A stretch of 57,777 nt of DNA from a virus (IMGVR_UViG_3300032320_001837:1-57777); one strand, 5' to 3'; counted from the stretch's first letter, positions 3,401 through 28,766 are shown. Translations and numbers: made by a program. The notes: generated by a model from the letters alone, not told the origin.

Positions 3401-5215
3401 GTAAGAAATCTCTTAGTACCACAAGATTTAACACCGTTTATTTCTGAAAATGGCAGAGTGTCAGCTTATGTTAGATTTGATTGGAGTAACTATCTAAGCT
3501 TAGAAGGATTTTCTGCAAACGATTATACGCAACAGTCTATATCTACTGATGGATTATTACAAGGAATGATGCCAGATATAGCTAATAACTTAGATAATGT
3601 AGGTCAAGATTTATCTTTTGCTGAGACTAAGGGGCTAGAAAGTGGAGTAAATATAACCAATTGGACTTGTGCGTTTGTTAAGTGTGACCTTAGTGATAAA
3701 TTCTATATGCCACCAAAAGCAACTCGCAGACAAATCAAACGTTTTGCTAGAGAGGTAATTGATATAGGTACTTTTGCTAAACCTAGACAATTATTTAATG
3801 AAGAAACATGTGCGTATGAAAATAGTTTTTCTTACTATCTAGCAAAATACATTCCTAAACCAAACGATGTTGGTGAAATGATACCAGTAACTGATTTTAT
3901 TAAAATATATGAACCTATTTTTTCTGGTAATTTAATAGATACAAGAAAAGAAAATTTGGATTACGATAATGTATATGCTTTAATTACTTTACCCGGTCGC
4001 CCCGTACCTCTAAAAGATATGAGATTTAGAGATGCTATGTATTTTAGTCAAAATCCAGTTAAGATGAAGCACATTTTAACTCAAGACATTATAAAAGACC
4101 CTACCAATATGCTAGGACTTCAATTGCCAGCATTTGTGAAAAAACCCACTAATATACTCAAAGATTATTGTTCAGGGTTTAGTGCTAATACTTTAACACA
4201 ATCCTTTCACATGTACAAAGAAACAATGAAAGGAATGACATTTGGTTTGCCACAGAGAATGCATATTGCTGTTCCGTCGCCCGTCTATCCAGATTTAGTT
4301 TCGCTATCATTAGAGTCCAGAGAAAGATGTTACGGACCTTGGATTACAACATTAATGAATCCTGGTGACTTAACTCCACAATTGGCTCAAGAGTTTGGTC
4401 TTTCACAATATAGAAATATTGGGGGGAAGTTAGAATACATACGCGATGAGAATTTAGCACCTTGGAATTTTTTTGGTCACGACTTAATGAATGAGGCTGG
4501 TAGACTAAAAGCATCTTATGGAAATAGTCTAATGTTGCATTCTGAACGCGGTGGATTTGTTTATCCAGATGCTCCCAGTGGTATAAGTATTGGTAGAGCT
4601 TTAATGGAAAGTGGAGCATATGTAACAAGTATAGATGTAAGTGTCTCTACGGCTGGTGTACAAACAACAGTAAAACTGGATTCTTATACAGCACAATGGG
4701 GTAAATTAGACAGACAAAAAGAAATACAAATATCTCAAATAAGTCGTGAAAGACAAAAGTTAAGAGATACAAAAAACCAATTTATTAGAAGAGGAATTGG
4801 TAAGGCTCAAACTTCTGTAAATTATGGTAATATTATAGGTTCTTTAGAAAAGTCTATTAATGATTCTATGAATAGAACAAAGTATAAAATTGGCAGTATT
4901 CAAACACAAAGTCAAGATAGATATAGAACTTTACCAAACAATCCTTCTTCTACAATACAATTAAATAATCATCAATTTTATGTTGGAAATACTGACAATT
5001 TAGGTATAGTAGATGAACAACAGTTTTTCCAAGAATCTCAAAATGCTGTTATAGCACAAGAAAATCAACATGATATTATAGCAACTAGGAATCCGAATGC
5101 AAAAAATGGTGCTGTTAAAACTCAAATAGTCAATAATGAACATCGTCAATCACAATATAAAGTAGATAGTGACCTTGCTAGCGAACAAGGATGGACTACC
5201 CCAGTAATATCTTAG
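428..5215 (+). CDS. Large hypothetical protein (1595 aa), probable virion tail/baseplate component
   Basis: Long open frame; beta-rich segments with a central helical stretch; co-oriented with other large genes opposite the replication block; no enzyme motif recognised. Confidence 0.55.
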   Translation: MTKFNKKFPLGQYGIVPDSGYFALDPQFSGVRNLPANAAFVSSGSFPSSFSNATYDSYVQQTFLGATILDFSISAGYGDTASQLSVSVVNDEYNNSDGTPLGSGADVYHSGSGDKFNPPPIGSPVFFTFGKGNLVPVENIYQWQSSGLPYMDNWMSSMGLYFEPPNESGRYHFAFGGILQGWTQNRNINGFTFNVNVVDPRQILSSVKLILNNYAEGTYRTENLINVYGFLEHNPSTSLLTTLRGHYPESGILTKYFVVGVDGQYTGKFTYMGSPVSGLYDNYHKPNYHATIANGLPRNFPITGTGMSRRSAVGIPFYRIIDSISAQMRLFGDLPQEYIDNGFEVFIRFRGYNYIIDFGSLPTEYIPRLYYVDFEEVSLLDFMQEICEIVNHELFVSLLPVNGHPRYQYIKAWNKHCADSTDINIKNKIVAGIIRIDAIDKTPAQTYGRIAEYIRNLDQVYRDNGTLIDCKATNLSEEDRQKCLAKQTVTSSDIGFELTDVTTEKFVAGANEVNMYFFTGSCDRDTYQSTSQRALLQARQYTHDEMITQQILPYYGMLGFGENSAVTIPRGFGAYQQILLDATSLNVNGVGSYYVATEMELRCAIVSFERWKEFLLMYNDVYMESVEENDIVEGAALLATPQRGQALNPNLSNNYAVTVPRCIFESDRNYLEIDGLPASPCSPPYGYPLYYKRAMKIGIPEGGLTNVTANLTQLVTDLAKMRQEARENLNNSQQMRGKNWQQQITWWNGAFDTARDIVSSVSKSTRSDGVIDSIQSSFATFFNTMRTLDDDINNRNSPYREHIALIDDTMTSASKAISIMPRLARKQNENAKKVYDFVKNIAEECLGKKFLVKIPKYANSFYQDKVEFSSNNQEYRITKGPFGFKPRLMNSNFEINGVRYNTFNPLQSLMAQCPPMKSYLTSGTYDNVPIIGLLKDGALKSNYQPISDTIEFNYVPSTEGGFFDFDLYDNVFKSNEMLYMMNNYPDKVPSGVRNLLVPQDLTPFISENGRVSAYVRFDWSNYLSLEGFSANDYTQQSISTDGLLQGMMPDIANNLDNVGQDLSFAETKGLESGVNITNWTCAFVKCDLSDKFYMPPKATRRQIKRFAREVIDIGTFAKPRQLFNEETCAYENSFSYYLAKYIPKPNDVGEMIPVTDFIKIYEPIFSGNLIDTRKENLDYDNVYALITLPGRPVPLKDMRFRDAMYFSQNPVKMKHILTQDIIKDPTNMLGLQLPAFVKKPTNILKDYCSGFSANTLTQSFHMYKETMKGMTFGLPQRMHIAVPSPVYPDLVSLSLESRERCYGPWITTLMNPGDLTPQLAQEFGLSQYRNIGGKLEYIRDENLAPWNFFGHDLMNEAGRLKASYGNSLMLHSERGGFVYPDAPSGISIGRALMESGAYVTSIDVSVSTAGVQTTVKLDSYTAQWGKLDRQKEIQISQISRERQKLRDTKNQFIRRGIGKAQTSVNYGNIIGSLEKSINDSMNRTKYKIGSIQTQSQDRYRTLPNNPSSTIQLNNHQFYVGNTDNLGIVDEQQFFQESQNAVIAQENQHDIIATRNPNAKNGAVKTQIVNNEHRQSQYKVDSDLASEQGWTTPVIS

Positions 5216-5224
5216 GAACATAAA

Positions 5225-8200
5225 ATGAAAATTGGAATTCAAGCTCATGGTGAAAATGGCGCTCATTTATTTACTAATGATTCGCCAGAACTAGAATACG
5301 TTGGACTGTCTAGCTATAGCCTATATCAATTAAGTGGTATAGTTATGTCTAGCGCCGTTTTAAATCTTAAAGCTTCATCTAGAAATGTTATTTTTACAAC
5401 TTTGATGGGTGAAACAGCGGATGGTGATGCAAAATATTTAAAATTTAATAAAGATACTGGTGGATTTTCAGAAGTACAAATACCTAAAGCTAGAATAAAA
5501 AATCTTATTGAGTGGCACGAATATTTTAATGAAAATCCTAGATATATATCTACTCCAACTGGTGGATTTACTAGAACAGAAGCTAAAGATCACCTAGTTG
5601 ATATTTCTAATAGTTTATCTGGATGCTTAACATTTCTAGTTAGTGGTGCTAATATTCAGATTGATTATACTTTACCAGAAGGTAATGGTGGATGCCAAAA
5701 AGAATTTGCTACTTATATTAATTTACATTTCACTGCAAGGAATAATGACGATACTAATCAGATAGTACAGAAATTTCACTCAATGGCAGGCATACCAAGC
5801 ACTTCAGCCGGTACTACATATAGCTGGACAGGCACTCAAAAAGCTACATCTGATAATCATCCCGGCGTTTTATCTCCAGTTCAAGATGGTGGTGAAGACA
5901 ATACGGATAATATGATCGCTGCTCCTATCGCTAAATCTTATTGTTCTAATACTGGAAGGTGGGAATTTGGAACTCAGCAAATACTAGTAAAACTTTTAAC
6001 TAATGTTGATCCTGTCGAAGAAACAGTTTTAGATGCAGAAACTTTTGATAATTTATCTTTTGAAGAATTATCCAATCCCGGTTCTGCATTTTATTTAAGC
6101 AATTACAAAACAGGTTACGCATCTCCAATATACCCGCAGAATAAAAATCCTAACCTTGCAATGCCAGCATTTGTTACTAAGTCTTGCGACAATAAAAATA
6201 CAAAAGAAAAAATACAGGTTGTTAATAGAAGTACTAGACCATACGCTATTGGTGAAACCGCAAAAGCTTCATTAATATGTGGCGAGTGGTTATTATCACC
6301 ACTGTCAGAGCCAAAACCACAAGTATTTACTCCAGTTATTAATAGGTGGCGCTTTCAAAAATTTATAGTTGATTCCGACAGTTATTTTAAAAACTATGCA
6401 TACTATATGAATTTAGATTATGATGGTAAATTAAACAACCTCGAAGCAACACTTAGCAAGGACGTATCTCCAGAAACATATGAATTCAGTATGACAAGAA
6501 TGTTTTTTATAGATATGTCTACTGTTACAAGCTTTGGCGGTCCCGCTCACTTAAATACCGTCAACAACAAGACGAAAATAGCTAAAGCGAATTTAAATGC
6601 TGACAAGTCATTAGAAACATTACGATCTTGGACAGATGGTGAATGGAATGATTATACTATTCCAAATAAGCTTGAAGAATTTAATAAAGGTAGTATTATT
6701 ATACCATCAGATAGGTATTGGCAAAGTACTGCGGCAGATCAATTGGGGGATTGGATGGGTGGCAATGGTCCTTATAATATTATTGGTAGAACTAATATTG
6801 CGGTAAATAATAACCCTAGCGAGGAAGATAAAGATAGTTGGGCGTATAAGTTTAATCACTTTTGGGGACCAGTATTTAATGCTGGATATGATCCTAGTAA
6901 AATTGCTAGTATAAAAGATGGACAAGTATTTTTCAAATCTCATAAAAATAATTCTAAATATTTTAGTTCTTCTCCATCTCTATCTCTTGTATCAATACCA
7001 CCAATTAATGATAATACTGTAGAAAAAAACATACAATATGACAGCGGTAGATTTATGTTTGCTGATAGTCAAGATAGCAATTGGTCACAATTTCCAGCAG
7101 AAATGGCTCTTTTGGGTGGCCCTAATGCTAAGAATGGTGGGCCACAAGAGTGTTTTAATATAATTAGAAGTGGAATTTCACCCATATGCTCTGGCACTAG
7201 TAGTACTAGTCAAGCCAATAACTTTTATTCTTTAATGGGAACTGTTATGGGCTTGGATGCTAATGGTATTCCAGATCGTTGGGATTGGTTATATATTGAT
7301 GACGATAATGAGGACGATCCCCTCGTAAATGATCTTTATGACTTAAAACCTAATACTTTGCAGTTAACCTTCATGCCCTTATCGGCTGAAATGGTTGGTA
7401 GTTCAGATAAGTTTTCGCAAAGTTTGTTGGAAGTTACTCTTGGTAGTAGAGGCGATTTAAATCCAAGTATTAATATCTTAAGAAGATTATACATGACAGC
7501 TAGAGGTTTTGACGGCAATTTAGATTTAATTGCTGGTTTTGAGGCTGGATCTTTTTATAAATCCAAGTTTCCCTTTTTGAAAGAGGATTTCTGGTTAACT
7601 GGAACGGGTACTGATCAAACCTCAACATTACCTCATGTTTGGGGAACAAAGTTTTTCGAAAGAGAAAAGCAGCAAAATTTTAATAGCTTCAGATTAATGA
7701 AATCTTATAGTAATAGTAGTTCAGTAACAAGAATTTATGATGTTATTCCATACGATTATGCCGTGAAGCAAACTGCTGGTCATTCTGCCGGAAGTCCTGG
7801 CATTTGGTATGCAAGCAGTCTACTTAACCAAGATGACGATTTTAGGAAAACTGGCGGATCTAAGGGCAATGCTGACTGTGTTGGTGTTATATGTGCTAAA
7901 GTTAGTATGTCTTGGAATCAATCGTCTATACCAATTAAAATTTCAGAAAGATTTGGCTTAAACGGCGTGGGCGTTACATTGACACCAACTGCTAATAATA
8001 TGGTAACTTTTGGTATATTTGGACTAGTTAATCTACCAACCATTGGTCAATCAACAAGGGTAACAGAGCCACAATGGGGTAGCACAAGAGATAGCGTTGA
8101 TGGTTTGTATAGTTTTGCAACAAATGCTTTATATGCTAGAGTTTTTACACAGTGGCCTGAGAAGCAAACATTATTTGATGGTAGATATTTTGGAGTATTA

Positions 8201-9244
8201 CATTTTCTACCGGGAGCTTTAAGTGGTCACGTTAATATAGACACAGAGATAAAAGATACTGGTATTACGCCTACTGGTACTTGGACTCCTTCGGTTGGCA
8301 GAACTAGCGCTTACGCTAGCCAGAGAACAGCCACTTTGCCACCCTATCAGCGCGCAGTTGATAAAATAACATCAGCAGTAGATTTTAGAATTCCAACATA
8401 TGCCCATCCTAAAACTCCTTCCTCTGATAATATAATCTGTAGTGTCGGAACTAGTGACAGTATTGTTGATAGATGTGGCCCAGGTAGTAAAGTATTGCGC
8501 CCAGAGTCAGAGTGGCGAGTTAATCCTATTAGAAGGGGCCAGATGTTTGCTGTAGGAGCTAATACTCAGCGCGTATTTAGATATTTTAAGCGCGTAATAG
8601 GTGTTAGTAAAAATGTAACTCACTGGAAGTATGCACGTAAAGTTGATTCTAATGGAAGTACTGTTACGGGAGCTAGCGCCGATGATGGTCAAGGCAAAGA
8701 TTATTCAGTAAAAGATATAATAGGCATAACTGGTGGGGCTGGAGATGGTGCAAAAATAGAAATTACATCCGTTGACACTACTGGTAAAGTTACCGGATTT
8801 ATAGTTATTGATCAAGGAGAAGGTTATTTACCAGCCAATTTTAAGGATACTAGTTGGGATTCTGCTCTTGATAGAAAAGAAGACCCGTTAACAGTTCTTA
8901 CTTCTATAAATATAAAAGTAAGAAATGCTAAAGCTACTGGATTAAAAGTTGGACCTATTGTTGGTGAAGTCTATGATAGATTGATGGAAGATAAGGGTCC
9001 ATTAGAAGTTTGTAAAACGACAAGATTATCAACACCAAGTGCTGCTGGAGAAAATGGTATAATTCAGACAAATAGAACTACGCAACTTCCTATCAGTGCC
9101 TCAACTGGAGTCAAGCCTAATTATGATTTATTTTTTCATTATCATAATGATATAGGACATACTTTATCTGCTTGGAGAGAGTGGAGCGCACAAAAGGATA
9201 ATACTAATGGCTTGGCTCAATATTGTTCAATCAATATTGGATAA
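5225..9244 (+). CDS. Large hypothetical protein (1339 aa), probable virion structural protein
   Basis: Long ORF, G/S/T/N-rich; segment GKDYSVKDIIGITGGAGDGAKIEITSVDTTGKVTGFIVIDQGEGY resembles beta-rich modules of phage tail/baseplate proteins. Confidence 0.55.
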   Translation: MKIGIQAHGENGAHLFTNDSPELEYVGLSSYSLYQLSGIVMSSAVLNLKASSRNVIFTTLMGETADGDAKYLKFNKDTGGFSEVQIPKARIKNLIEWHEYFNENPRYISTPTGGFTRTEAKDHLVDISNSLSGCLTFLVSGANIQIDYTLPEGNGGCQKEFATYINLHFTARNNDDTNQIVQKFHSMAGIPSTSAGTTYSWTGTQKATSDNHPGVLSPVQDGGEDNTDNMIAAPIAKSYCSNTGRWEFGTQQILVKLLTNVDPVEETVLDAETFDNLSFEELSNPGSAFYLSNYKTGYASPIYPQNKNPNLAMPAFVTKSCDNKNTKEKIQVVNRSTRPYAIGETAKASLICGEWLLSPLSEPKPQVFTPVINRWRFQKFIVDSDSYFKNYAYYMNLDYDGKLNNLEATLSKDVSPETYEFSMTRMFFIDMSTVTSFGGPAHLNTVNNKTKIAKANLNADKSLETLRSWTDGEWNDYTIPNKLEEFNKGSIIIPSDRYWQSTAADQLGDWMGGNGPYNIIGRTNIAVNNNPSEEDKDSWAYKFNHFWGPVFNAGYDPSKIASIKDGQVFFKSHKNNSKYFSSSPSLSLVSIPPINDNTVEKNIQYDSGRFMFADSQDSNWSQFPAEMALLGGPNAKNGGPQECFNIIRSGISPICSGTSSTSQANNFYSLMGTVMGLDANGIPDRWDWLYIDDDNEDDPLVNDLYDLKPNTLQLTFMPLSAEMVGSSDKFSQSLLEVTLGSRGDLNPSINILRRLYMTARGFDGNLDLIAGFEAGSFYKSKFPFLKEDFWLTGTGTDQTSTLPHVWGTKFFEREKQQNFNSFRLMKSYSNSSSVTRIYDVIPYDYAVKQTAGHSAGSPGIWYASSLLNQDDDFRKTGGSKGNADCVGVICAKVSMSWNQSSIPIKISERFGLNGVGVTLTPTANNMVTFGIFGLVNLPTIGQSTRVTEPQWGSTRDSVDGLYSFATNALYARVFTQWPEKQTLFDGRYFGVLHFLPGALSGHVNIDTEIKDTGITPTGTWTPSVGRTSAYASQRTATLPPYQRAVDKITSAVDFRIPTYAHPKTPSSDNIICSVGTSDSIVDRCGPGSKVLRPESEWRVNPIRRGQMFAVGANTQRVFRYFKRVIGVSKNVTHWKYARKVDSNGSTVTGASADDGQGKDYSVKDIIGITGGAGDGAKIEITSVDTTGKVTGFIVIDQGEGYLPANFKDTSWDSALDRKEDPLTVLTSINIKVRNAKATGLKVGPIVGEVYDRLMEDKGPLEVCKTTRLSTPSAAGENGIIQTNRTTQLPISASTGVKPNYDLFFHYHNDIGHTLSAWREWSAQKDNTNGLAQYCSINIG

Positions 9245-20044: not shown

Positions 20045-21702
20045 ATATTCATTGCCCTTATTCTTTTTTGCTCCCAGTGATTTCTTCTTTCGCATAAAGA
20101 AACAAAGTGCTTATAAGCATCTTCAAACGAAAATGGACTTAAACGCTTACCGTCAAATGCAGCTGAACTTTCATTATAATACATTCCACCAGTATTAGAA
20201 GTAGACGTTTTATATGTTAAGTCTCTTGTTAACCTAGCCTCCATAAACGTATTCAACTTTTCTGGCTCTCTTAAAACTTCAGCTATTAACCACTGAGCTA
20301 ATTGTTGGTAATTAGATACGCTCTTTAATTGATCTTCTGTTAGTGGTGGAGCAGATTGAGCAATTCTAGGTGGAGACTTCCAAGATTTTTCATCTGGAAT
20401 AATATCTATACTATCGAAATACTTCTCCCACTGCCCGCCGCTTATATGCCACTGGAAATTCTTTTCAAATAATTCCCTTGTTCTCTTACCAAGCTCTTCT
20501 CGTTCTTCCTTGGTTTTATTGAAGAATTCTAGAAATTTTTGGGCTGCAAAATCATTGTCTGGAACTGCTCTCATGCACCCAGTTTCTAATTCTTTATACA
20601 AAGCCTTTGGTGTTAGTGGAGTTCCACCAAGTTGTCTTATTACGCTTTCCATAGCTGAGTAATCTGTAGACATAACTGGTATACCACAAGCCGCTGCCTC
20701 TACTTGTGGTAGTCCAAAACCTTCACAGTTAGCATATTGAACATATAGATCAAAAAGATTCATTATCATAGATAGATGTTCATAGCTTGCACCATTTTTG
20801 ACGCTAGAAATAGTTGCTCCGTACTTTTGAGTAAATGGAGAAACTGTTACAGCACCCCTAAATAAGCTAGGAAATGGCTGTTTAGTTTCTGGGCATATGT
20901 ATGTAAAATATACCTTACTAGCTAATTCGTTTGCTTGAATTAATTCTGGTAAATCCCATCCTAGATCTGGATAACTTGTGTGACAGTATAGAAAATAATT
21001 TTCTGGATCTGGCACTAATGACAAGAACTTCTTAAAAGCTACAAATAGATCTGGATAAAGTTTTCTACGCTGATTTCTCATTACAGTGCCGATAATCTTA
21101 GCATTAGGACTTAATCCCAAGCTTTGCCTTAATGCTTCCTTATTTTCGATAGGCTTATATGCAGGATCAGCAGAGGGCGGAGAACTTCCTAAGTAATTAA
21201 TTCTACCACCAGATTGTTCAGTTAATACCTTACCAGCCCAATCTGAATAAGTAAAGCAAGCGTCAGCATTTGCGTAAGTTGCAATCCATTGACGCGCCTG
21301 TGGAGCGGCATCCACTGTAGGCATGATTGCCCACTTAAAGAAATTTCTAAATGGAGATCTTTCAACAAAGTCTAACATCCAAAAGTCTCGTATGTCGCAT
21401 ACAACGTCTGGTTTAAAATCTAGACAAACATCGTTGAATATAAATTCACCAAACTGATTTGTTGGAAGTGAATTGTATGCATCATGCTCTTCTTTTGAAC
21501 ACTTATCATCTGGAGCTACGCCATAGTATTTCCAAGGTAAATTTAAACCCCTTGGGTCATGCCTATGTCCATACGAAGCCATTTCTGCAATTTCATACTT
21601 ATTTGTACTATGTAGATACTTCAGTATTTCTCTAGTATAAGTGGCATACCCGGTATTTAAAAATGTAGCTTCACTACAAAATAATATTCTTTTTTTTCTC
21701 AT
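20041..21702 (-). CDS. Glycosyltransferase family 4 (GT-B) with C-terminal extension
   Basis: TGYA, RNQRRK, EGFGLPQVEAAACGIPV (E-x7-E). Confidence 0.9.
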   Translation of the reverse strand: MRKKRILFCSEATFLNTGYATYTREILKYLHSTNKYEIAEMASYGHRHDPRGLNLPWKYYGVAPDDKCSKEEHDAYNSLPTNQFGEFIFNDVCLDFKPDVVCDIRDFWMLDFVERSPFRNFFKWAIMPTVDAAPQARQWIATYANADACFTYSDWAGKVLTEQSGGRINYLGSSPPSADPAYKPIENKEALRQSLGLSPNAKIIGTVMRNQRRKLYPDLFVAFKKFLSLVPDPENYFLYCHTSYPDLGWDLPELIQANELASKVYFTYICPETKQPFPSLFRGAVTVSPFTQKYGATISSVKNGASYEHLSMIMNLFDLYVQYANCEGFGLPQVEAAACGIPVMSTDYSAMESVIRQLGGTPLTPKALYKELETGCMRAVPDNDFAAQKFLEFFNKTKEEREELGKRTRELFEKNFQWHISGGQWEKYFDSIDIIPDEKSWKSPPRIAQSAPPLTEDQLKSVSNYQQLAQWLIAEVLREPEKLNTFMEARLTRDLTYKTSTSNTGGMYYNESSAAFDGKRLSPFSFEDAYKHFVSLCERRNHWEQKRIRAMNI

Positions 21703-21706
21703 AGTA

Positions 21707-22021
21707 TTATTCTCTATTTTCTATATTACAAATGTCAAATTCATTGATTCTAAATACTATTCTATCATCGTTTTTTTCTACTTGTCTTGCGCTAGCATTG
21801 ATAGTTATTTTAGTTCCTTTATTAGCAAACTTTGCAATAGTCTCAGCACCGGTATGCCAAGCCTCACAGTAAATATGTGTAGCCAACTTTGTTTTTTCCC
21901 CAGTACTTTTAGCTTTTCTATAAGAATATACCACTAATATAAATTCTGCTAAAGTTACTCCATCCATTTTACTTATGATTGGATCTTCTGTTAAGTATCC
22001 AGTAAATAAACAAGAATTCAT
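21707..22021 (-). CDS. ssb: Single-stranded DNA-binding protein (short OB fold)
   Basis: MNSCLFTGYLTEDP...CEAW...AETIAKFANKGTKI SSB pattern. Confidence 0.8.
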   Translation of the reverse strand: MNSCLFTGYLTEDPIISKMDGVTLAEFILVVYSYRKAKSTGEKTKLATHIYCEAWHTGAETIAKFANKGTKITINASARQVEKNDDRIVFRINEFDICNIENRE

Positions 22022-22022
22022 T

Positions 22023-23582
22023 CTATGTCTCCATTATTTTTTCAATTATTAACGAATCGTTTTTACCCTTGGTATTACAACACAAGACTAAATTATTACC
22101 TTCATAAAGAACGTACTTATACTTTTCTTTGATTGACGGAAAAGCTACAACATTATCTAGTATGCAAGTATCATCTTCAATAGTCAAAAATGCCATTTTT
22201 TGTCCTTTAGATTCTCCATTTTTTATAGTGTATTCTGATATGAGTTTTATATTGGCTACTATGCAAATATTACCACCCTTTTTGCCATTTACAATTTCTT
22301 TACACGTTGTATTAGCTAAAGAAGTGTCGGCTGTTTCTACTTTTGTTAAAGTAATAGGGCAACCTAGAAATTTGATTTCTTGATCAATAATCCACTTAAT
22401 ACTATCTTCTAGAATGTATGGTGGATTAAGCAGTAGTTGAATTTCATTTTCTACAACTTGCTGCCTTTCTTTTTTACTAGTTCCCCCACCAAGCTTTTTC
22501 ATTGGTGCTAATGATTTAAGGGCTTCTAGTAAATTAGGCCATAGTATTGTATTATACTCCTGTGATAACCATTTTTGCTCTGCCGAAGTCAAAGTTCTAA
22601 AAATTTCATATTCATATAATGCCCTTGTTCTACTAATAGACCCATTAAAGTCTCTAAAAAATCCTACAGAAGCTAAAGACTTAAATGCTGTAGAGCTTAT
22701 CTTTTCCCCCAGATATAGCAATATTTCCAGCCATGTAAACTTTGTTATCTTCTTACCCTTTTCTAATTCCGCCGAATTTATTGCCGCTATTACAGCATCC
22801 CCAGTTTTACCAGAAAGAGATTTAATATCTTTGATGCCAAAGAAAACTTTTCCGTCTTTTATGTTAAACTTTTCTTCGAAATTGTTTAGACTAGGAGTTG
22901 CTGCTTGAATATCAAATAGTTTTGCTTCTGAGACTAATTCATATATTTCTTGATGTGGATCTTGTTTTTCTATAGCGTGATACAAATATGATAAGAAAAA
23001 TTCTTTTGTATTATGAGCTTTATAGTAGGCACTCCAATATGAACAAACTGCGTATGAAACGCTGTGAGATTTATTAAAGGCATATCTTGATGACTTTTCG
23101 ATCCATCCGAATATCTGCTCTGCCTCTTCCTTAGAAACGATCCCAACGCGCTCTGCGCCCGCTATAAATGATTTTTTTACTTCATTCATGAGATCGGCTT
23201 TCTTTTTTCCAATGGCCTTACGAAGAACGTCAGCTTCTTGTAGGTTAAATCCCGCTATTTTCTCTGCAATACGCATGGACTGTTCTTGATAAACTAAAAC
23301 TCCATATGTTGGCTTTAGTATATCTTCTAATGATGAATGTAGGTATGTAACTTCTTCTCTACCATGTTTTCTATCTACGTAGTGTTGAGTCATAGACTTT
23401 CCATCTAACATAGACTTAAGAGTTCCGGGTCTGATGATGGCTATAAGTGCTGATAACTCTTCTATATTATTTGGTGCTAATTTTTTTGACCAAGATTTAC
23501 CTAGATTGCTTTCAAGCTGAAAGACGCCTTTGGTTCTTCCTTCAGCAAAAAGCTTCCAAGTTTTTTCATCATTATATTCCAT
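22023..23582 (-). CDS. dnaE: DNA polymerase III alpha, C-terminal fragment (fingers, HhH, OB)
   Basis: GVFQLES, IRPG, TYGVLVYQEQ, ADVLRKAIGKKK, YAFNKSHSVSY, MAFLTIED motifs; no intein motif at the N-terminus. Confidence 0.95.
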   Translation of the reverse strand: MEYNDEKTWKLFAEGRTKGVFQLESNLGKSWSKKLAPNNIEELSALIAIIRPGTLKSMLDGKSMTQHYVDRKHGREEVTYLHSSLEDILKPTYGVLVYQEQSMRIAEKIAGFNLQEADVLRKAIGKKKADLMNEVKKSFIAGAERVGIVSKEEAEQIFGWIEKSSRYAFNKSHSVSYAVCSYWSAYYKAHNTKEFFLSYLYHAIEKQDPHQEIYELVSEAKLFDIQAATPSLNNFEEKFNIKDGKVFFGIKDIKSLSGKTGDAVIAAINSAELEKGKKITKFTWLEILLYLGEKISSTAFKSLASVGFFRDFNGSISRTRALYEYEIFRTLTSAEQKWLSQEYNTILWPNLLEALKSLAPMKKLGGGTSKKERQQVVENEIQLLLNPPYILEDSIKWIIDQEIKFLGCPITLTKVETADTSLANTTCKEIVNGKKGGNICIVANIKLISEYTIKNGESKGQKMAFLTIEDDTCILDNVVAFPSIKEKYKYVLYEGNNLVLCCNTKGKNDSLIIEKIMET

Positions 23583-23917
23583 TATTTTTTTCCTAGTAAA
23601 TAATTCAAAGCGTTTACCACACCCTCTATATTATCTCCAAGCTTACCAAGTCCAGTATTACAACGCTCACATATCCACCCTCTGAACCTATCGGTTTCGT
23701 GATCATGATCTAAACACCATTTAAGTGGAACCTTTTTACAACACTCACACAATTCTGGCTTATCTGGCGCATTTTTATGCAAATCTCTCCTAATAGAAGA
23801 ATGTTTCTTTATGCAACTCCTACATCGCATATCCAACTTATCTTTGTACATGCTATGTTTAGGAAATTGATCTAAAGACTTTTTTAATTTACAGTAAATG
23901 CATACTTTATTTGACAT
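23582..23917 (-). CDS. Endonuclease VII-like His-Me nuclease with N-terminal zinc finger
   Basis: CIYC...CRSC then CECC...LDHDHETDRFRGWICERCNTGLG. Confidence 0.85.
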   Translation of the reverse strand: MSNKVCIYCKLKKSLDQFPKHSMYKDKLDMRCRSCIKKHSSIRRDLHKNAPDKPELCECCKKVPLKWCLDHDHETDRFRGWICERCNTGLGKLGDNIEGVVNALNYLLGKK

Positions 23918-24587
23918 AAAGATTACCATTAGCAAAAGCTTTGTCAAATTCTATATTTTGATAAACGGCTCTATGAGTTTTTAGCAACTTAATGAATATA
24001 TTTGCAGTGTCTTTTACGTCTTGTAGTGCATCGTGAGCATTTTCTGAACTCAATCCCATCTTTTCTCTTAGTGAATCCATGCTAATAGATTTAATACTAG
24101 GGTCTGCTTCCGTCCACATAAAAACATTATCCATTAAATCTACTTTGTAAACTTTACTAAATAACTTTTGTTGATCTTTGGTCTTATCCCAAGGCCCAAA
24201 TTCTTGACATAGCCTATTAACAATAATCAAGTCGAAGCCTATGATATTATAGCCAACTGGTATAGGATTAAAAAATGGCTCACCTTTCCAATTGTATTGA
24301 TCTACAAACTTTGTGAATTTTGTCCACACAGATTTTAAAGCTGGTGCTTCTGCTAGCTTTTCTCTATTTTTACCAGTTATCTTTAACGCCCCATCTTCAA
24401 TTGGGTCTACGCCAGCCGCCACTGCTTCCTCATCATCAAGTATTGGTTTTATCTCACTATTAAATGTACCCTTTACGGATAAATTTCTACCGTCTAGTGC
24501 AATAGCAGCAATTTGTGTAGGTTGAGTTTTATGAGGATTTCTACTACCCGTTTCAAAATCAAAAATGATATAGTCCCTGTTAGCCAT
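23907..24587 (-). CDS. DEDDh 3'-5' exonuclease, DnaQ/epsilon-like
   Basis: ExoI FDFETG, ExoII GYNIIGFD, ExoIII AHDALQD. Confidence 0.9.
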   Translation of the reverse strand: MANRDYIIFDFETGSRNPHKTQPTQIAAIALDGRNLSVKGTFNSEIKPILDDEEAVAAGVDPIEDGALKITGKNREKLAEAPALKSVWTKFTKFVDQYNWKGEPFFNPIPVGYNIIGFDLIIVNRLCQEFGPWDKTKDQQKLFSKVYKVDLMDNVFMWTEADPSIKSISMDSLREKMGLSSENAHDALQDVKDTANIFIKLLKTHRAVYQNIEFDKAFANGNLYVK

Positions 24588-24596
24588 ATTTATCTC

Positions 24597-25250
24597 CTAT
24601 TGTAAATTTTGTGAATCTTCTATTATTTTCTTACAGTCCTTATAGGAGCATTCTATCTTTTCAATCCTATTGTCAAGCATATTTTTGTGAATATACCAAT
24701 CTTCAATAGAATTATGCCCATTCAATAAAACGTCTGCACATAATAATTTATATCCATTAGAAACAAATTTTTCTCTTGAAATTTCACGCAGTAGTTTAGA
24801 TTCTTTTTGACTCTTTTCATTAGACCAAGCTGGTTTCGATTCGTAATGAAAGTAATTATGTTCAAATGTTATGACATTAAATTGACATAATGACAAATCC
24901 ATATCATGAAGCACCTTCATTGTTGCATCGTCTACATCAAATGATAAGTAATCTATAACTTGTGGAGCCTTACATTCTCTTAGTATATCATTGATATTTT
25001 TATTAAATAAGTCGGCATGAATTAACTTACATTTTCTGTATATTGAAGCTTCATTTATGTAATCAATATCACAGTCTATTGCAATACCATTCCAACCAAG
25101 ATGTTCAAAATAATATGTATTACTATAAAAGCCATTATATTGACCTCTTAAGCCACCTGTTCCAGCACCTATGTCTAGAAAATATCCATTCTTTTTATTT
25201 TTAGTAATGATATCTACAAAATTATCCTGACACACTTGAGCGTTATACAT
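24597..25250 (-). CDS. FkbM-like SAM methyltransferase
   Basis: QDNFV...GYFLDIGA...SNTYYFE..GWNGIAID...IDYLSFDVD...ITFEH. Confidence 0.8.
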   Translation of the reverse strand: MYNAQVCQDNFVDIITKNKKNGYFLDIGAGTGGLRGQYNGFYSNTYYFEHLGWNGIAIDCDIDYINEASIYRKCKLIHADLFNKNINDILRECKAPQVIDYLSFDVDDATMKVLHDMDLSLCQFNVITFEHNYFHYESKPAWSNEKSQKESKLLREISREKFVSNGYKLLCADVLLNGHNSIEDWYIHKNMLDNRIEKIECSYKDCKKIIEDSQNLQ

Positions 25251-26061
25251 GTTGTACCTTTTTTATATACATGATTTTATCTAGCAAAGTCAAACCTAAT
25301 ACATCAAACTTTACATGACCTAGAGCTTCTAGGTCTACCATTTCTAATCCTGCAATTTTTTCTGATGAACCCTTTTGTTTGACCATAGGACATACTTTGT
25401 ATAGTGGCTCTTTAGATATGACAACACCAGCAGCGTGTTTACCTTGAGTTTTAAACGTGCCTTCTAACTTAATTGCCTGTTCGAAGTATTCAGCATAGTC
25501 TCCATCTAATGATCCATCATCATTTATTCTACAAAAATCTTGAAGCTCATCTGCGTTATTTATCAACGCCCACCTAATAATAGACCTATCATCGTCATCC
25601 ATTTCTGCCAACTGATCTGATATTTCTGCTTCATTTGGTATAATTTTTGTTATTGCATTCATTTCCGCAAAAGAACAAGCTTCATTTACTCTCAATACTT
25701 CTTTTATGGCACTTCTGCCCTGTAGTCTCCCAAACGTAATCATCTGACTAACCTTATCGTGACCATACTTATCTTTAAGATATTTGATGACATCATCTCT
25801 ATGATTAGCGGGAACATCCATGTCTATATCTGGCAAAGAAATATGATCTTCTGTGTTTCTACCAGCATTATAGAATCTAGCAAACAAGAGATCAAATTCT
25901 ATGGGGTCTATTTGAGTAATACCAATTAAATATGATATTAAACAACCAGCCGCTGAATTATGCACACCAAGACCTTCTACATTATATGTGTGGCTATTTT
26001 CAACAGATAAGTCGTGAACTTTTCCTTTGTATTTAATTATTTGTTTTTTTGTAAGTTTCAT
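25243..26061 (-). CDS. dnaE: Split-intein C half fused to the DnaE palm/thumb fragment
   Basis: 35 aa IntC ending VHN, then SAAGCLISYLIGIT...LLFARF...PDIDMD...HAAGVVI...KFDVLGL. Confidence 0.95.
   Translation of the reverse strand: MKLTKKQIIKYKGKVHDLSVENSHTYNVEGLGVHNSAAGCLISYLIGITQIDPIEFDLLFARFYNAGRNTEDHISLPDIDMDVPANHRDDVIKYLKDKYGHDKVSQMITFGRLQGRSAIKEVLRVNEACSFAEMNAITKIIPNEAEISDQLAEMDDDDRSIIRWALINNADELQDFCRINDDGSLDGDYAEYFEQAIKLEGTFKTQGKHAAGVVISKEPLYKVCPMVKQKGSSEKIAGLEMVDLEALGHVKFDVLGLTLLDKIMYIKKVQHV
25957..26061 (-). mobile_element. Split intein, C-terminal half (35 aa)
   Basis: Block F VHDLSVENSHTYNVEG and block G VHN followed by Ser+1; Lys-rich. Confidence 0.9.
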
Positions 26062-26833
26062 TGTGAATATTCCTAGCTGTTTTGTAAAAAATTTTTACAG
26101 CATCATCATTATCAAAAATAACTATGTAACTATCAAATTGTTGTCGTGCGGCTTCAATCTTTAAGATATTTCTTGCATAGTTTTTTCTATACCAAAGTCC
26201 ACTCCCTTTAATTTCAACAATATCATTTTGATTAATAATAAAATCTGGATAATATTTTCTATCAACCCCACTCTCATCTACATATTTTACTGGATCAAGA
26301 TCATATCTTTTTACCAATATGTTTTCATGCTCACACCATAATACGAACGACAATTCTAATGCGCTATCATAATATATATTATTATAAACACCCTTTAAGC
26401 CTCCACGCCCAAATCCAATCTTAACATTGTTGATATTATTTAAATTATTTTGAGCTTTTTTGGCAAAAGCTTCATCATTTTTCCATTTTTCTTTTAAAAG
26501 CGACGATGCTAAATTGCGCCTTTCATGATTCCAGCTTCTTCTTACCCCATTTCTGTTTTTTTGTAGTTGCTCTGGTCTATTTTGTGCAATTTTTTGTGAT
26601 TGTGAATTTTTTATTATCCATTTGTCATCTTCTTTGGTGTTAATAATTAACCAGCATTTACCACAAGTTTGCCATAGGTGCTTTTTATCTAATTTATTTT
26701 TCCTATTTCTCATAAATTTTTTAACAGATGAATACTCAAAGTTAGTGCCACACTTTGTGCAATAGCCACTAATGGGTACATTGCTAATAGATTTAGTATT
26801 AAACTGTATTTTTTCTAGCTCTGTATAATTCAT
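26033..26833 (-). CDS. Free-standing PD-(D/E)xK (TnsA-like) homing endonuclease between the split intein halves
   Basis: CTKC...CGKC zinc motifs, basic linker, YDSALE...YYPDFII...VEIKG; AGGAGG RBS before ATG 26833. Confidence 0.8.
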   Translation of the reverse strand: MNYTELEKIQFNTKSISNVPISGYCTKCGTNFEYSSVKKFMRNRKNKLDKKHLWQTCGKCWLIINTKEDDKWIIKNSQSQKIAQNRPEQLQKNRNGVRRSWNHERRNLASSLLKEKWKNDEAFAKKAQNNLNNINNVKIGFGRGGLKGVYNNIYYDSALELSFVLWCEHENILVKRYDLDPVKYVDESGVDRKYYPDFIINQNDIVEIKGSGLWYRKNYARNILKIEAARQQFDSYIVIFDNDDAVKIFYKTARNIHNETYKKTNN

Positions 26834-26835
26834 AT

Positions 26836-26878
26836 AGCCCTCCTGTGTCTTTATACATATAAAGTCCTTGGCGGGGCT
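26836..26878 (-). promoter_or_regulatory. Putative RBS-sequestering hairpin of the endonuclease gene
   Basis: mRNA AGCCC-CG-CC...CUUUAU-AUGU-AUAAAG...GG-A-GGGCU pairs over AGGAGG. Confidence 0.5.
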
Positions 26879-26885
26879 TCTTTTA

Positions 26886-28007
26886 TTATATCTCACACAC
26901 ATTGTCACTTTCTGTAAGATATTGAGCTTCCACCCAACCCCTGTTGGTGGTTAGAAATTTATGATCTTTAGTGCATCTTATTACAACATCACCAAACCAT
27001 AGCTCCAAAATATCTTCATCAATATCATAGACAAGAGTATCGTACACAGTTTCAGCATTTCCATTACAATCAATAATCTTGTCATTGATTTGAATGTCAC
27101 ATATGTTTTTCATTAAACCATTTGACATCTTTACTCTTGTATCTGGTAAAAAACAGCCTCTTCCCGGCCCAGACAACCAACCATTGTCATGAACGTGTTT
27201 TATTATGTCTTGCACGATTAAGAAATATCCGAAGAGATTTGCGTTTTTGATTACGTCAAACTCTTCTTTGAATCTATCTAGATACTTCTGTTTGTTTACT
27301 TCGTCAGACACTTTCCCCTTATCAATTAGTAATGATTTCCAGCCTTTTCTACATAGCTCTTTTAAATACTCTTCTTCTGACAAATTATTTGGGCATTTGA
27401 ATTTTGGCAGAACTGGCTTATTTAGGATATCATAATCTTCGCACTGATCGTAAACATCTTCAAGGACGCGAGACATTTTACCAGCTACTACGTATTTATT
27501 CTCATCTGTAAAAAACTGAGACACGTTAGGATCAAGCTCATTCTTGCGTATTTGCTTTGCAATACTTGGCAGTGTACTCTTTAGTTCTGAGCATATTAAT
27601 ATTCTATGCAAATTGGCTTGATCTTTGTAGCAATAGAAACTTGTAGGTATGCCAATATCATGCTCAAGATATATAAGATTATTCTGTTTTAATAACCCCT
27701 TAATGTGTTTAATATCTATGTTATTGTCATCATCTATTAATGACATAATTTCAATGAGATTATTCCAGCCGTTCTTATTTTTGGCGTATAAGTTATAGCC
27801 GTCGAATGAACAACCCAAAATAGGTTTAATCCCAACTTCTTTGCAAGCTTTATAAAAAGCTACACATCCAGATATGGTTTTATAGTCAGTAATACCACAA
27901 GCTGGATAACCATTCTCTTTACAAAGCTTGGCTAGTTCTTTGGGCTTAGAAAAGCCTTTCAGCAAACTGTAATGCGTATAATTATTTAATGGAAACCAAT
28001 TCAACAT
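26886..28007 (-). CDS. dnaE: DnaE N-terminal fragment (degenerate PHP domain to GPGRG) fused to split-intein N half
   Basis: THYSLLKG, GITD, GIKPILG, YLDRFKEEFDVI...FGYFLIVQDII...GPGRG then CFLPDT intein start. Confidence 0.95.
   Translation of the reverse strand: MLNWFPLNNYTHYSLLKGFSKPKELAKLCKENGYPACGITDYKTISGCVAFYKACKEVGIKPILGCSFDGYNLYAKNKNGWNNLIEIMSLIDDDNNIDIKHIKGLLKQNNLIYLEHDIGIPTSFYCYKDQANLHRILICSELKSTLPSIAKQIRKNELDPNVSQFFTDENKYVVAGKMSRVLEDVYDQCEDYDILNKPVLPKFKCPNNLSEEEYLKELCRKGWKSLLIDKGKVSDEVNKQKYLDRFKEEFDVIKNANLFGYFLIVQDIIKHVHDNGWLSGPGRGCFLPDTRVKMSNGLMKNICDIQINDKIIDCNGNAETVYDTLVYDIDEDILELWFGDVVIRCTKDHKFLTTNRGWVEAQYLTESDNVCEI
26889..27155 (-). mobile_element. Split intein, N-terminal half (89 aa)
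   Basis: Block A CFLPDTRVKM, block B IRCTKDHKFLT..GWVEA, then a stop codon with no blocks F/G. Confidence 0.9.
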
Positions 28008-28020
28008 ATAACCTCAATAT

Positions 28021-28046
28021 AAAAACGGGGGGATATTTCACCCCCC
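28021..28046 (-). terminator. Probable intrinsic terminator
   Basis: On the - strand GGGGGG-TGAAATAT-CCCCCC followed by GTTTTT, just after the stop at 28059. Confidence 0.7.
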
Positions 28047-28058
28047 TTACGAATCAAT

Positions 28059-28349
28059 TTATTCTTCACGCACCAACTTAACATCTAGACCGGGAACTGA
28101 TGGAGCGATTGTATCATTCGCAACGAATTCTACAACTGCTGGATCGCTCACGTTACCAACATCATCTACGTCTACAAAAGAGAGTGAAACAATATCACCT
28201 TGAACGAATGTTCTCTCTCCTAAGTTAGTAACGTCACCGGCATAAACGTCTGTAGCAACTGAAACGCCGTTTACTGTGACTGTTAATCTACGCTCAACGA
28301 CATCAGTATCAACTGGTGACGCACACGTTACTTCATATACTAAACCCAT
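28059..28349 (-). CDS. Small acidic Val-rich protein, possible Ig-like fold
   Basis: AGGAG RBS before MGLVYEV at 28349; alternating beta-strand pattern, DDVGNVS motif. Confidence 0.6.
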   Translation of the reverse strand: MGLVYEVTCASPVDTDVVERRLTVTVNGVSVATDVYAGDVTNLGERTFVQGDIVSLSFVDVDDVGNVSDPAVVEFVANDTIAPSVPGLDVKLVREE

Positions 28350-28523
28350 ATCTATCTCCTTTTTAAGAAATTTATACTTTATGAATAGTGGGCGTAATTC
28401 TAATTTACGCTTCCATTTCATAGAGTAATACGATAAAACAACAAAACTACATTCTAGTAGAATAAATAATACGACACAAAATAGCAAATAATTTTCCATT
28501 AACAATCCTTTTGGTGCAAACTA

Positions 28524-28766
28524 TTATAGCTCTGTTCGCCCATTATTGCAGTTTCTAGATTTTCTGTACTGATCAAAAGATTCATTAAGTTTTCTAATCA
28601 ATAATGTTCCAGCCTCTTCAAAAAAGCAAGGGAAAAATCCGTGAATAATTAGTAACAATCCAGCTTCTAAACATACCAGACCATGACCTACCGCAAACTT
28701 TAAATGTTCACAATAAGTCATATTATTATCTTTTAGGTGCTTAGTCCAGTCTTTGTAAAGCTTCAT
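28524..28766 (-). CDS. Small membrane protein, DUF6356-like
   Basis: HLKDNNMTYCEHL...LIIHGFFPCFF pattern; ATGA overlap with the upstream gene. Confidence 0.6.
   Translation of the reverse strand: MKLYKDWTKHLKDNNMTYCEHLKFAVGHGLVCLEAGLLLIIHGFFPCFFEEAGTLLIRKLNESFDQYRKSRNCNNGRTEL

Follow-up and report, generated by a model that had tools for sequence, protein, structure and literature searches.

IMGVR_UViG_3300032320_001837 is a virus record of IMG/VR whose 57,777 bases were analysed whole (hereafter the window; positions are counted from its first letter). It is a 57.8-kb piece of the genome of an uncultured freshwater (lake-water) phage, with a CheckV completeness estimate of 36%. The subject here is its DNA polymerase III alpha subunit, DnaE, which is encoded in three pieces. 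Eight minus-strand open reading frames (ORFs) lie in 21707-28007, and Pfam gives their order as DnaE piece 1, an ORF of 291 amino acids (aa), piece 2, a methyltransferase, an exonuclease, an endonuclease VII (EndoVII)-like protein, piece 3 and SSB. Of the seven junctions between them, four overlap (by 1 to 41 nucleotides, nt), two have gaps of 1 and 9 nt and one holds a 52-nt spacer, which follows the N-terminal intein half (IntN) at the end of piece 1. A sequence-only reading of this DNA had placed three DnaE ORFs here; all were found on the minus strand where it had put them, together with the motifs GPGRG/C, VHN/SAAG, PDIDMD and FNKSH (a slash marks a splice junction). Taken together, the findings suggest that this phage has a single replicative polymerase, a family-C DnaE assembled from three polypeptides in two unrelated ways, protein trans-splicing and non-covalent binding, and we give this reading a probability of roughly 85%. 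To our knowledge, family-C polymerases are generally treated as single-chain enzymes.

Domains were assigned with Pfam, and residues were placed on the solved structures of E. coli and Taq DnaE. Piece 1 (26886-28007, minus strand) is an ORF of 373 aa, consisting of a 284-aa N-extein (27156-28007) and IntN. The extein contains a PHP domain (E 1.4e-18 at residues 10-108) about 80 residues shorter than that of E. coli, followed by the first part of the palm (residues 213-284, matching positions 1-65 of the DNA_pol3_alpha profile), and ends in GPGRG; weak Hint/intein matches to Pfam begin at residue 283. Piece 2 (25243-26061, minus strand) has 272 aa, made up of the C-terminal intein half (IntC) and a 237-aa C-extein (25243-25956) which starts with SAAG and carries the remaining palm, the thumb and a short variable tail. 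It matches positions 66-260 of the same profile (E 1.4e-50), the palm model being severed exactly at 65/66 between the two pieces. Piece 2 was aligned to residues 363-565 of E. coli DnaE and 424-626 of the Taq enzyme, and its PDIDMD and FDVLGL motifs fall on the matching stretches of both; the aspartates in these motifs we take to be the catalytic residues. Piece 3 (22023-23582, minus strand) is a C-half of 519 aa with the fingers (DNA_pol3_finger, E 1.1e-47), a putative helix-hairpin-helix (HhH) region and a C-terminal region that may resemble an oligonucleotide-binding (OB) fold. Its alignment to E. coli DnaE residues 592-855 covers both FNKSH and the RRAMGKK-like motif, here LRKAIGKKK. The PHP domain of piece 1 may have a purely structural role. 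Its first motif (27980-28007) reads NNYTHYS, compared with RVHSDYS in E. coli.

The two breaks can be placed on E. coli DnaE. Piece 1 ends at G363 and the extein of piece 2 starts at S364, which sets the intein site at G363/S364, and the exteins add up to 284 + 237 = 521 aa, as had been calculated earlier. Residue 263 of piece 2 corresponds to E. coli 565 and residue 4 of piece 3 to 592. Piece 2 would end near residue 574 and piece 3 begin near 589, which puts the second break some 15-30 residues into the fingers, in a loop. The match to the finger model begins at profile position 26 in piece 3, compared with position 21 in P0121, a fused relative (47% identical). At most about 14 residues are unaccounted for at this break, and the alignment to full-length DnaE that the sequence-only reading had called for shows no conserved segment missing. 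DnaE is typically one continuous chain; here it is three ORFs, and the split is kept in relatives.

These relatives comprise 80 IMG/VR loci holding a relative of piece 3 (tblastn survey), of which 38 form group 1 (70-98% identity) and 42 form group 2 (43-47%), and a third set of 57 loci fetched with P0121 as query. All 137 were retrieved by DnaE-derived queries. Alleles were checked by mapping Logan contigs from four public runs (X2, X3, X5 and X6) onto the region; X2 and X3 are further samples from the study to which the source sample may belong, X6 comes from a second study and X5 from a third.

The first break has the structure of a split intein. IntN (26886-27155) is 89 aa long, begins with Cys1, carries the block B sequence RCTKDHKFLT and ends in a TAATAA double stop. 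It has a weak Hint match and a weak match to the NrdJ-1 intein 8ubs (E 0.0023), and its 17 acidic (D/E) and 8 basic (K/R) residues give a net charge of -9. IntC (25957-26061) has 35 aa, with six lysines among its first 15 residues, the block F sequence VHD and a terminal HN; its start overlaps the neighbouring endonuclease gene by 29 nt. The spacer between IntN and that gene (26834-26885, 52 nt) contains a hairpin that pairs AGCCCC to the ribosome-binding site (fold of 26822-26892: dG -13.8 kcal/mol, z -2.89, with 3 of 200 shuffles folding equally well). From Cys1 to the terminal Asn the element measures 1,199 nt. Cys1, the TxxH of block B, the block F Asp, the terminal HN and the +1 Ser of SAAG are invariant in all five intein copies found, which span lineages about 45% identical in the C-half. 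As far as sequence can tell, break 1 is a split class-1 intein with a free-standing endonuclease gene, a mobile (selfish) element.

It is conceivable that the intein halves have lost the ability to splice and serve only to dimerise pieces 1 and 2, the polymerase then consisting of three non-covalent chains. Split intein halves do bind tightly through charge complementarity, and such complementarity is present between IntN and IntC. However, each residue of the splicing chemistry is retained in every copy across these diverged lineages, the halves evolve at a dN/dS of 0.04-0.11 (0.108 for IntN and 0.043 for IntC against L004, indicating purifying selection), and a bulky unspliced intein at GPGRG/SAAG would sit in the modelled active-site interface described below, which is hard to square with function. 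This alternative is thus unlikely, and trans-splicing remains the preferred account of break 1.

Further survey of groups 1 and 2 revealed that the intein at this site is sporadic, being carried by 5 of the 80 loci and lacking in 75. L001 and L002, 98% identical to the window in protein, are without it, and their uninterrupted N-half reads GPGRGSAAG. In L046, L053 and L054 the intein halves flank a 264-aa endonuclease gene, while L004 and L056 carry the split intein with no endonuclease gene and with 50 or 87 nt between the halves. The survey for intermediate states proposed with the sequence-only reading thus returned several: intein-free, intein with endonuclease and intein without. The public runs contain both alleles as well. 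In contigs of X2 and X3, position 25953 is joined to 27157 via four letters, a net loss of exactly 1,199 nt that stays in frame, and this intein-free allele is exactly the predicted spliced product. A 13.5-kb contig of X6 spans 25259-28007 unbroken, with the occupied allele across both junctions, and contigs of X5 likewise bridge the junctions of IntN, endonuclease gene and IntC. With X5 and X6 occupied and X2 and X3 intein-free, the layout does not stem from misassembly, and the two alleles coexist in nature.

The same contigs bear on the idea that strains with and without the intein were merged in assembly, the three-gene layout being a chimera of the two. Coexistence of the alleles in runs of the study behind the likely source sample would allow for such an error, but the occupied allele was also assembled in two other studies, five IMG/VR loci share the architecture, and an endonuclease of 266 aa that is 98% identical to the one in the window occurs on three Logan contigs. 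A chimera is accordingly exceedingly improbable, and misassembly, which had been named as a possible refutation, was not borne out. The earlier statement that the catalytic chain requires trans-splicing would apply to the window; across the population the need is, judging from the 98%-identical relatives and the X2 and X3 contigs, facultative.

The gene between the intein halves (26033-26833, minus strand) encodes a free-standing putative homing endonuclease of 266 aa, with an N-terminal four-Cys module, a helical middle and a C-terminal PD-(D/E)xK nuclease domain. A start at GTG 26908, giving the 291-aa ORF, had been assigned earlier and was dropped. ATG 26833 is the most likely start because AGGAGG lies seven bases upstream and homologues have 251-286 aa, the closest (the Logan protein mentioned above) having 266. 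In 48 aligned family members E159, D196, E206, K208 (265-aa numbering) and three cysteines are invariant, and the fourth Cys is conserved in at least 90%. Pfam reports DUF7487 and a TnsA-like N domain in the 291-aa ORF (PF08722, 20.7 bits against a cut-off of 26.5). An AF2 model (pLDDT 89.8) gives the C-terminal domain a restriction-endonuclease fold, for which TnsA 1t0f (Z 7.3, rmsd 3.5, 122 residues aligned), I-Bth0305I 3r3p (Z 5.9) and Vsr 1cw0 (Z 5.5) are matches, all below Z 8, the safe level for telling relatives from a common fold. TnsA is also the top Foldseek match (E 0.023). No sequence similarity to any PDB chain was detected, comparison with a Vsr-like endonuclease of locus L083 gave only E 0.70, and a search for relatives in IMG/VR by peptide patterns matched four stretches and confirmed none. 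The protein is, from its aligned residues and its model, a predicted PD-(D/E)xK nuclease with E, D and ExK residues; its membership of the TnsA family proper is uncertain. Possibly it represents a new class of intein-associated PD-(D/E)xK nuclease, of interest for protein engineering. The short natural split intein itself (89 + 35 aa, Ser +1) is of practical interest for the same purpose.

At the second break, no intein is involved. A gene of 226 aa (23907-24587, minus strand) encodes a DEDDh 3'-5' exonuclease (Pfam RNase_T, E 4.7e-14) that is the constant occupant of the palm-fingers break. It matches the PHROG family 'DNA polymerase exonuclease subunit' (E 4.9e-25) and, as the closest solved structure, the PolC exonuclease domain 2p1j (E 7.3e-5), and its translation shows DFET, NIIGFD and HDALQD (Exo I, II and III, the last with HxxxxD). 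To judge from these motifs, it is likely the proofreading subunit of the split DnaE. The order N-half, exonuclease gene, C-half was found in all 80 loci of groups 1 and 2 and in 55 of the 57 loci of the P0121 set, or 135 of 137, which is not an unbiased frequency given the DnaE-derived queries. In the two exceptions, L083 and L123, the exonuclease gene lies upstream of a DnaE gene that is fused. Moreover, stand-alone C-halves account for 2,938 protein clusters at E 1e-20 among the 8,000 candidates scored, the best 120 all having 519-531 aa. The palm-fingers break, as this comparison indicates, is an old, clade-wide trait that is not peculiar to the window genome.

Of the three genes between pieces 2 and 3, the exonuclease gene is the only conserved one, and the other two are optional cargo. 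The first is an FkbM-like methyltransferase gene of 217 aa (24597-25250, minus strand; Methyltransf_21, E 9.8e-8) between the N-half and the exonuclease gene. None of the 80 loci has a homologue of it in that slot, and it is absent from the 13.5-kb X6 contig. The slot holds an optional gene in 14 of the 38 group 1 loci (FkbM-like methyltransferases, HNH-like proteins and others). The second is an EndoVII-like gene of 121 aa (23582-23947, minus strand; Endonuclease_7, E 1.5e-12; PHROG endonuclease VII, E 9.2e-23) between the exonuclease gene and the C-half, a slot in which 25 of the 38 group 1 loci have an ORF of 120-141 aa, most but not all of these EndoVII-like. Both slots are empty in 10 of the 38. 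In these minimal loci neighbouring homology segments are only -1 to 14 nt apart, and the ORFs as called share 8-11 nt where the N-half meets the exonuclease gene.

Healing of the palm-fingers break at the level of RNA or translation, either by an intron with the exonuclease as its ORF or by ribosomal bypass, would instead yield a single chain. Phage polymerase genes often contain group I introns, and endonuclease genes occupy this break in many loci, as might be expected if it were healed in this way. Against it, no Rfam match (group I intron or other RNA) was found in 21500-28600 at E up to 1, the minimal loci are too compact to hold a ribozyme, the ORF of the exonuclease is conserved in its own right (dN/dS 0.03-0.05), and a stop codon closes the N-half while a conserved start opens the C-half. 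Such healing is therefore very unlikely. Since no Hint domain was found at the palm-fingers break or in piece 3, and neither an Rfam match nor room for a ribozyme exists, non-covalent assembly is what remains. This agrees with the earlier suggestion that the third piece joins without an intein, and the two halves are also predicted to form one polymerase when modelled together.

All pieces are under strong purifying selection. Against L001, L003 and L004, dN/dS is 0.040-0.091 for the piece 1 extein, 0.025-0.046 for the piece 2 extein, 0.049-0.064 for piece 3 and 0.028-0.048 for the exonuclease. These values, together with the intact catalytic and dNTP-binding motifs and ORFs that are intact in 79 of the 80 group 1 and 2 loci, argue against the pieces being remnants of a decaying DnaE in a phage whose genome is replicated by another polymerase, its own or that of the host. 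Decay would draw some support from the incompleteness of the window, as a second polymerase could lie in the part of the genome outside it, and from the damaged N-half of one relative, L041. However, no family A or B polymerase (PolA, PolB) was found in any of the four records searched, namely the window and three relatives, and each of the three relatives has exactly one DnaE palm, one of them being a 161-kb, 100%-complete genome with terminal repeats. Decay is for these reasons highly improbable, and the separate intact polymerase that had been named as a refuting finding was not found in these records. A phage beta clamp (PF00712) was matched in none of four records, which is a weak negative.

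The multimer prediction suggested with the sequence-only reading was made with the natural intein-free N-half of L001 and residues 1-330 of piece 3. The complex reached an ipSAE of 0.82, compared with 0.00 for the best of three controls. As Pol III alpha has been solved as a single chain, the model may have memorised such structures and the score may show likeness only; the use of own alignments is a further caveat. Of 80 solved complexes 58 attained the ipSAE mark, as did 2 of 110 mismatched pairs. At least 89% of contacts recur between runs, with a partner pLDDT of at least 86. In the modelled interface, N-half residues 280-288 (GPGRGSAAG, the intein site), 298-316 and a tail helix at 506-522 face C-half residues 170-205, which include the FNKSH helix. 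The active site would be composite, because the catalytic aspartate stretches lie in the N-half and LRKAIGKKK and FNKSH in the C-half.

Assembly of the polymerase can thus be proposed to proceed by two routes. In the first, suggested by the sequence, the selfish element inserted in the palm at GPGRG/SAAG would supply an acidic IntN and a basic IntC, which would associate and trans-splice to yield the 521-aa N-half (PHP, palm and thumb) in the same layout as the uninterrupted N-half of near-identical phages. The endonuclease encoded between them would presumably cut intein-free alleles and so allow the element to spread. In the second, which draws on the comparison of loci and on the complex model, an old gene split in the fingers loop, where the DEDDh exonuclease gene is always lodged, would be overcome by non-covalent binding of the N-half to the 519-aa C-half (fingers, putative HhH and OB-like region). 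The N-half would contribute three catalytic aspartates and the C-half the triphosphate-binding LRKAIGKKK and FNKSH to one active site. As the intein site lies within the modelled interface, splicing should precede productive docking.

Several observations weigh against this reading, in addition to the query bias, the low fold scores of the endonuclease and the possible memory effect given above. The earlier assignment of fingers, HhH and OB to the third gene was confirmed by Pfam for the fingers only: the HhH match in piece 3 (HHH_6, E 6.4e-4) scores 20.3 bits, below the cut-off of 25.6, and Pfam finds no OB fold in piece 3. At the homologous end of P0121 an OB match (E 8.7e-6) scores 26.0 bits, just short of the cut-off of 27. 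Fused DnaE relatives of 1,052-1,146 aa exist at 43-47% identity. The N-half of L041 (4300-4950) is broken by a frameshift deletion that removes the palm PDIDVD stretch, while the near-identical L042 and L045 are intact; the damage may reflect a defective genome or an assembly error. Finally, no RNA run containing the stretch was found among those listed.

Parts of this arrangement have precedents. Dassa et al. (2009; PMC2677866) described 26 'fractured' loci with a split intein and a free-standing homing endonuclease, three of them in DnaE and one of these from a freshwater lake. The window shares with those loci the host N-part with IntN, the endonuclease gene and IntC with the host C-part, adjacent on one strand, with overlapping frames and a hairpin; hairpins upstream of the endonuclease start are given there for 15 of 16 such loci. 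The sequence traits of such a fractured gene (IntN with Cys1 and TxxH, IntC with HN and Ser, an endonuclease gene between them and an uninterrupted allele) are present here. The same source notes an opposite charge pattern in natural split inteins, with which the acidic IntN and Lys-rich IntC of the window agree, and gp41-7 as a fractured-gene variant without endonuclease, which L004 and L056 resemble. The endonucleases of its fractured genes are GIY-YIG or Vsr-like, whereas the one found here has a canonical E/D/ExK motif and is nearest to TnsA. Moreover, the short reads used in 2009 could not reveal a second, intein-free break. The trans-splicing part of the present locus is another case of this published kind (PMC2677866). 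No description of a clade-wide DnaE organised as N-half, exonuclease and C-half, or of this three-piece combination, was found in open-access papers and preprints. Intein-free alleles and split inteins with and without the endonuclease, all in one gene family, represent different stages of the gene-breaking model of 2009, and the alleles coexist in lake samples.

The cyanobacterial Ssp and Npu DnaE inteins share with the window the host protein and a naturally split class-1 intein associated with protein trans-splicing; they lie in the fingers next to FNKSH, are divided between two genes at separate loci and have no endonuclease (PMC2677866, PMC4760082). In the window, by contrast, the site is in the palm (E. 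coli G363/S364), the genes are adjacent and FNKSH is intact in piece 3. The cyanobacterial site, presumably just before CFNKSH in the extein, would be close to a second intein site, FNK/SH, seen in L083, L119, L123, L134 and L138.

Intein-free fractures of replication enzymes are known too. Dassa et al. (PMC2677866) cite a split gp43 family-B polymerase without intein in T4-like Aeromonas phages and the NrdA of Aeh1, split by an HNH endonuclease. These resemble break 2 in that an essential replication enzyme is encoded by collinear ORFs with genes between them, endonuclease genes are found in the break and non-covalent assembly is expected. The polymerase of the window differs in belonging to family C and in having an exonuclease gene, not a homing endonuclease, as the constant insert. 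Further, gp43 and NrdA are split in single phages, whereas the present split occurs in 135 of the 137 related loci (with the bias stated) and in thousands of protein clusters from metagenomes. In T4-like jumbo phages, Iyer et al. (2021; PMC7824862) reported a minimal Pol III alpha made as two proteins thought to reconstitute one enzyme. That version has no PHP or other domains, is encoded by genes distant from each other and occurs alongside a family-B polymerase; in the window the domain set appears to be kept in full, the genes are adjacent, and no other polymerase was found in the records searched. With the bacterial Pol III core (alpha and epsilon) and with PolC the locus shares a DnaE-type polymerase and a DEDDh, probably proofreading, exonuclease. 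In solved bacterial structures alpha is a single chain, and in PolC the exonuclease is a domain within the polymerase chain; here it is a separate gene between two alpha halves. If the proposed assembly is correct, a natural and widespread two-chain family-C enzyme would offer a ready system for studying palm-fingers communication, with the aspartates and the nucleotide-binding motifs on separate chains, and would bear on how far replicases tolerate fracture by selfish elements.

The history of the split was examined with a quick LG+G4 tree of the C-half region in 66 rows (the window, 11 of the 38 group 1 loci, 11 of the 42 group 2 loci, 16 of the 57 P0121-set loci, 19 fused forms and 8 outgroup rows), from which the five loci with a C-half intein were omitted. 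One fused clade is sister to group 2 (SH-aLRT 98) and another is sister to most of the third set (98). A single origin of all split forms as one clade was rejected by the AU test (p 0.00016, log-likelihood difference 101.6), with the caveats that the group was named after tree inspection and that some branches are long. The topology would call for repeated re-fusion or for repeated spread of the split. Gene order around the fused clade that is sister to group 2 was sought with P0131 as query, which gave only two weak loci. Between the window (23907-24587) and L001 (6996-7676) the exonuclease gene has a dS of 1.17, compared with 0.15-0.24 in the DnaE pieces, which suggests recombination inside the break.

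The second intein site reads YAFNK/C...SN/SH, with IntN after YAFNK and IntC ending in SN before SH; between the halves lies a gene for a Vsr-like endonuclease of 295-314 aa. In L119 (3530-6443), L134 (8515-11340) and L138 (7931-10787) this element creates a second kind of three-piece DnaE, ordered as N-half, exonuclease, first part of the C-half with IntN, endonuclease gene (301-314 aa, with the motif IE[IV]DGDY[FY]HSNP), and IntC with the rest. In L083 (5001-9687) and L123 the same split intein lies inside the fused gene, giving a two-piece DnaE. The FNK/SH and GPGRG/S sites touch each other in the complex model. Some stand-alone C-halves carry contiguous LAGLIDADG inteins. A wider picture may be offered tentatively, as a possibility that we consider less likely than not to hold in full: a very abundant aquatic phage clade would have its active site across a subunit interface and the proofreader gene in the break, and its split state would be mobile and interleaved with fused forms, with nuclease genes (HNH, EndoVII-like and others) using the break as a landing pad. 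The cassette of split and exonuclease may then spread between co-infecting phages through endonuclease-driven gene conversion, and split inteins on both faces of the interface (GPGRG/S and FNK/SH) would produce three- and possibly four-piece polymerases.

Several smaller features of these loci were also recorded. At the C-terminus of the exonuclease (window 23907-23960) a tail of the form F(D/E)KAFANGxLYVK is shared by group 1 and the marine-type loci and may serve as a peptide that docks onto the polymerase or a clamp. In L084 (6837-7520), L092, L095, L116, L130 and L137 the exonuclease frame is open with no ATG, GTG or TTG near the conserved INYRDIIVFDFET start, which hints at an unusual start codon. 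Unrelated FkbM-like methyltransferase genes recur in the slot between N-half and exonuclease gene (window 24597-25250, L002:6320-7003, L010:6286-6960 and L024:6392-6991), and homologues of the window's own gene sit elsewhere in L086-L088 and L119. Group 2 loci (L038-L080) always have an ORF of 58-70 aa with a conserved CC pair in the break (e.g., L046:7024-7215), and their C-halves (e.g., L046:7890-9506) open with some 20 additional residues and a conserved CGC motif. Neither the CC ORF nor the CGC start has a Pfam or PHROG match; together they might make up a small bridge that binds metal and links the two halves.

A terminator-like hairpin lies just upstream of piece 1 (28027-28046, minus strand; consensus scan only). 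As the same scan found no other minus-strand terminator-like site down to 21707, the whole gene set may form one transcription unit. A scan for sigma-70-like promoters was uninformative (35 found, 35.6 expected). The sole long plus-strand genes of the window are two very large ORFs at 428-5215 (1,595 aa) and 5225-9244 (1,339 aa), with no PHROG match at E 1e-5. When piece 3 was compared by tblastn with 50,697 phage records in search of cultured relatives, all of the matches listed were below 30% identity. DnaE in pieces may also be present in deposited phage genomes. Among the PHROG families labelled 'DNA polymerase', several cover DnaE only in part, with profiles of 171-823 positions, some of which end or start near the breaks described here (matches of L001:5423-7000 and of window 22023-23582).

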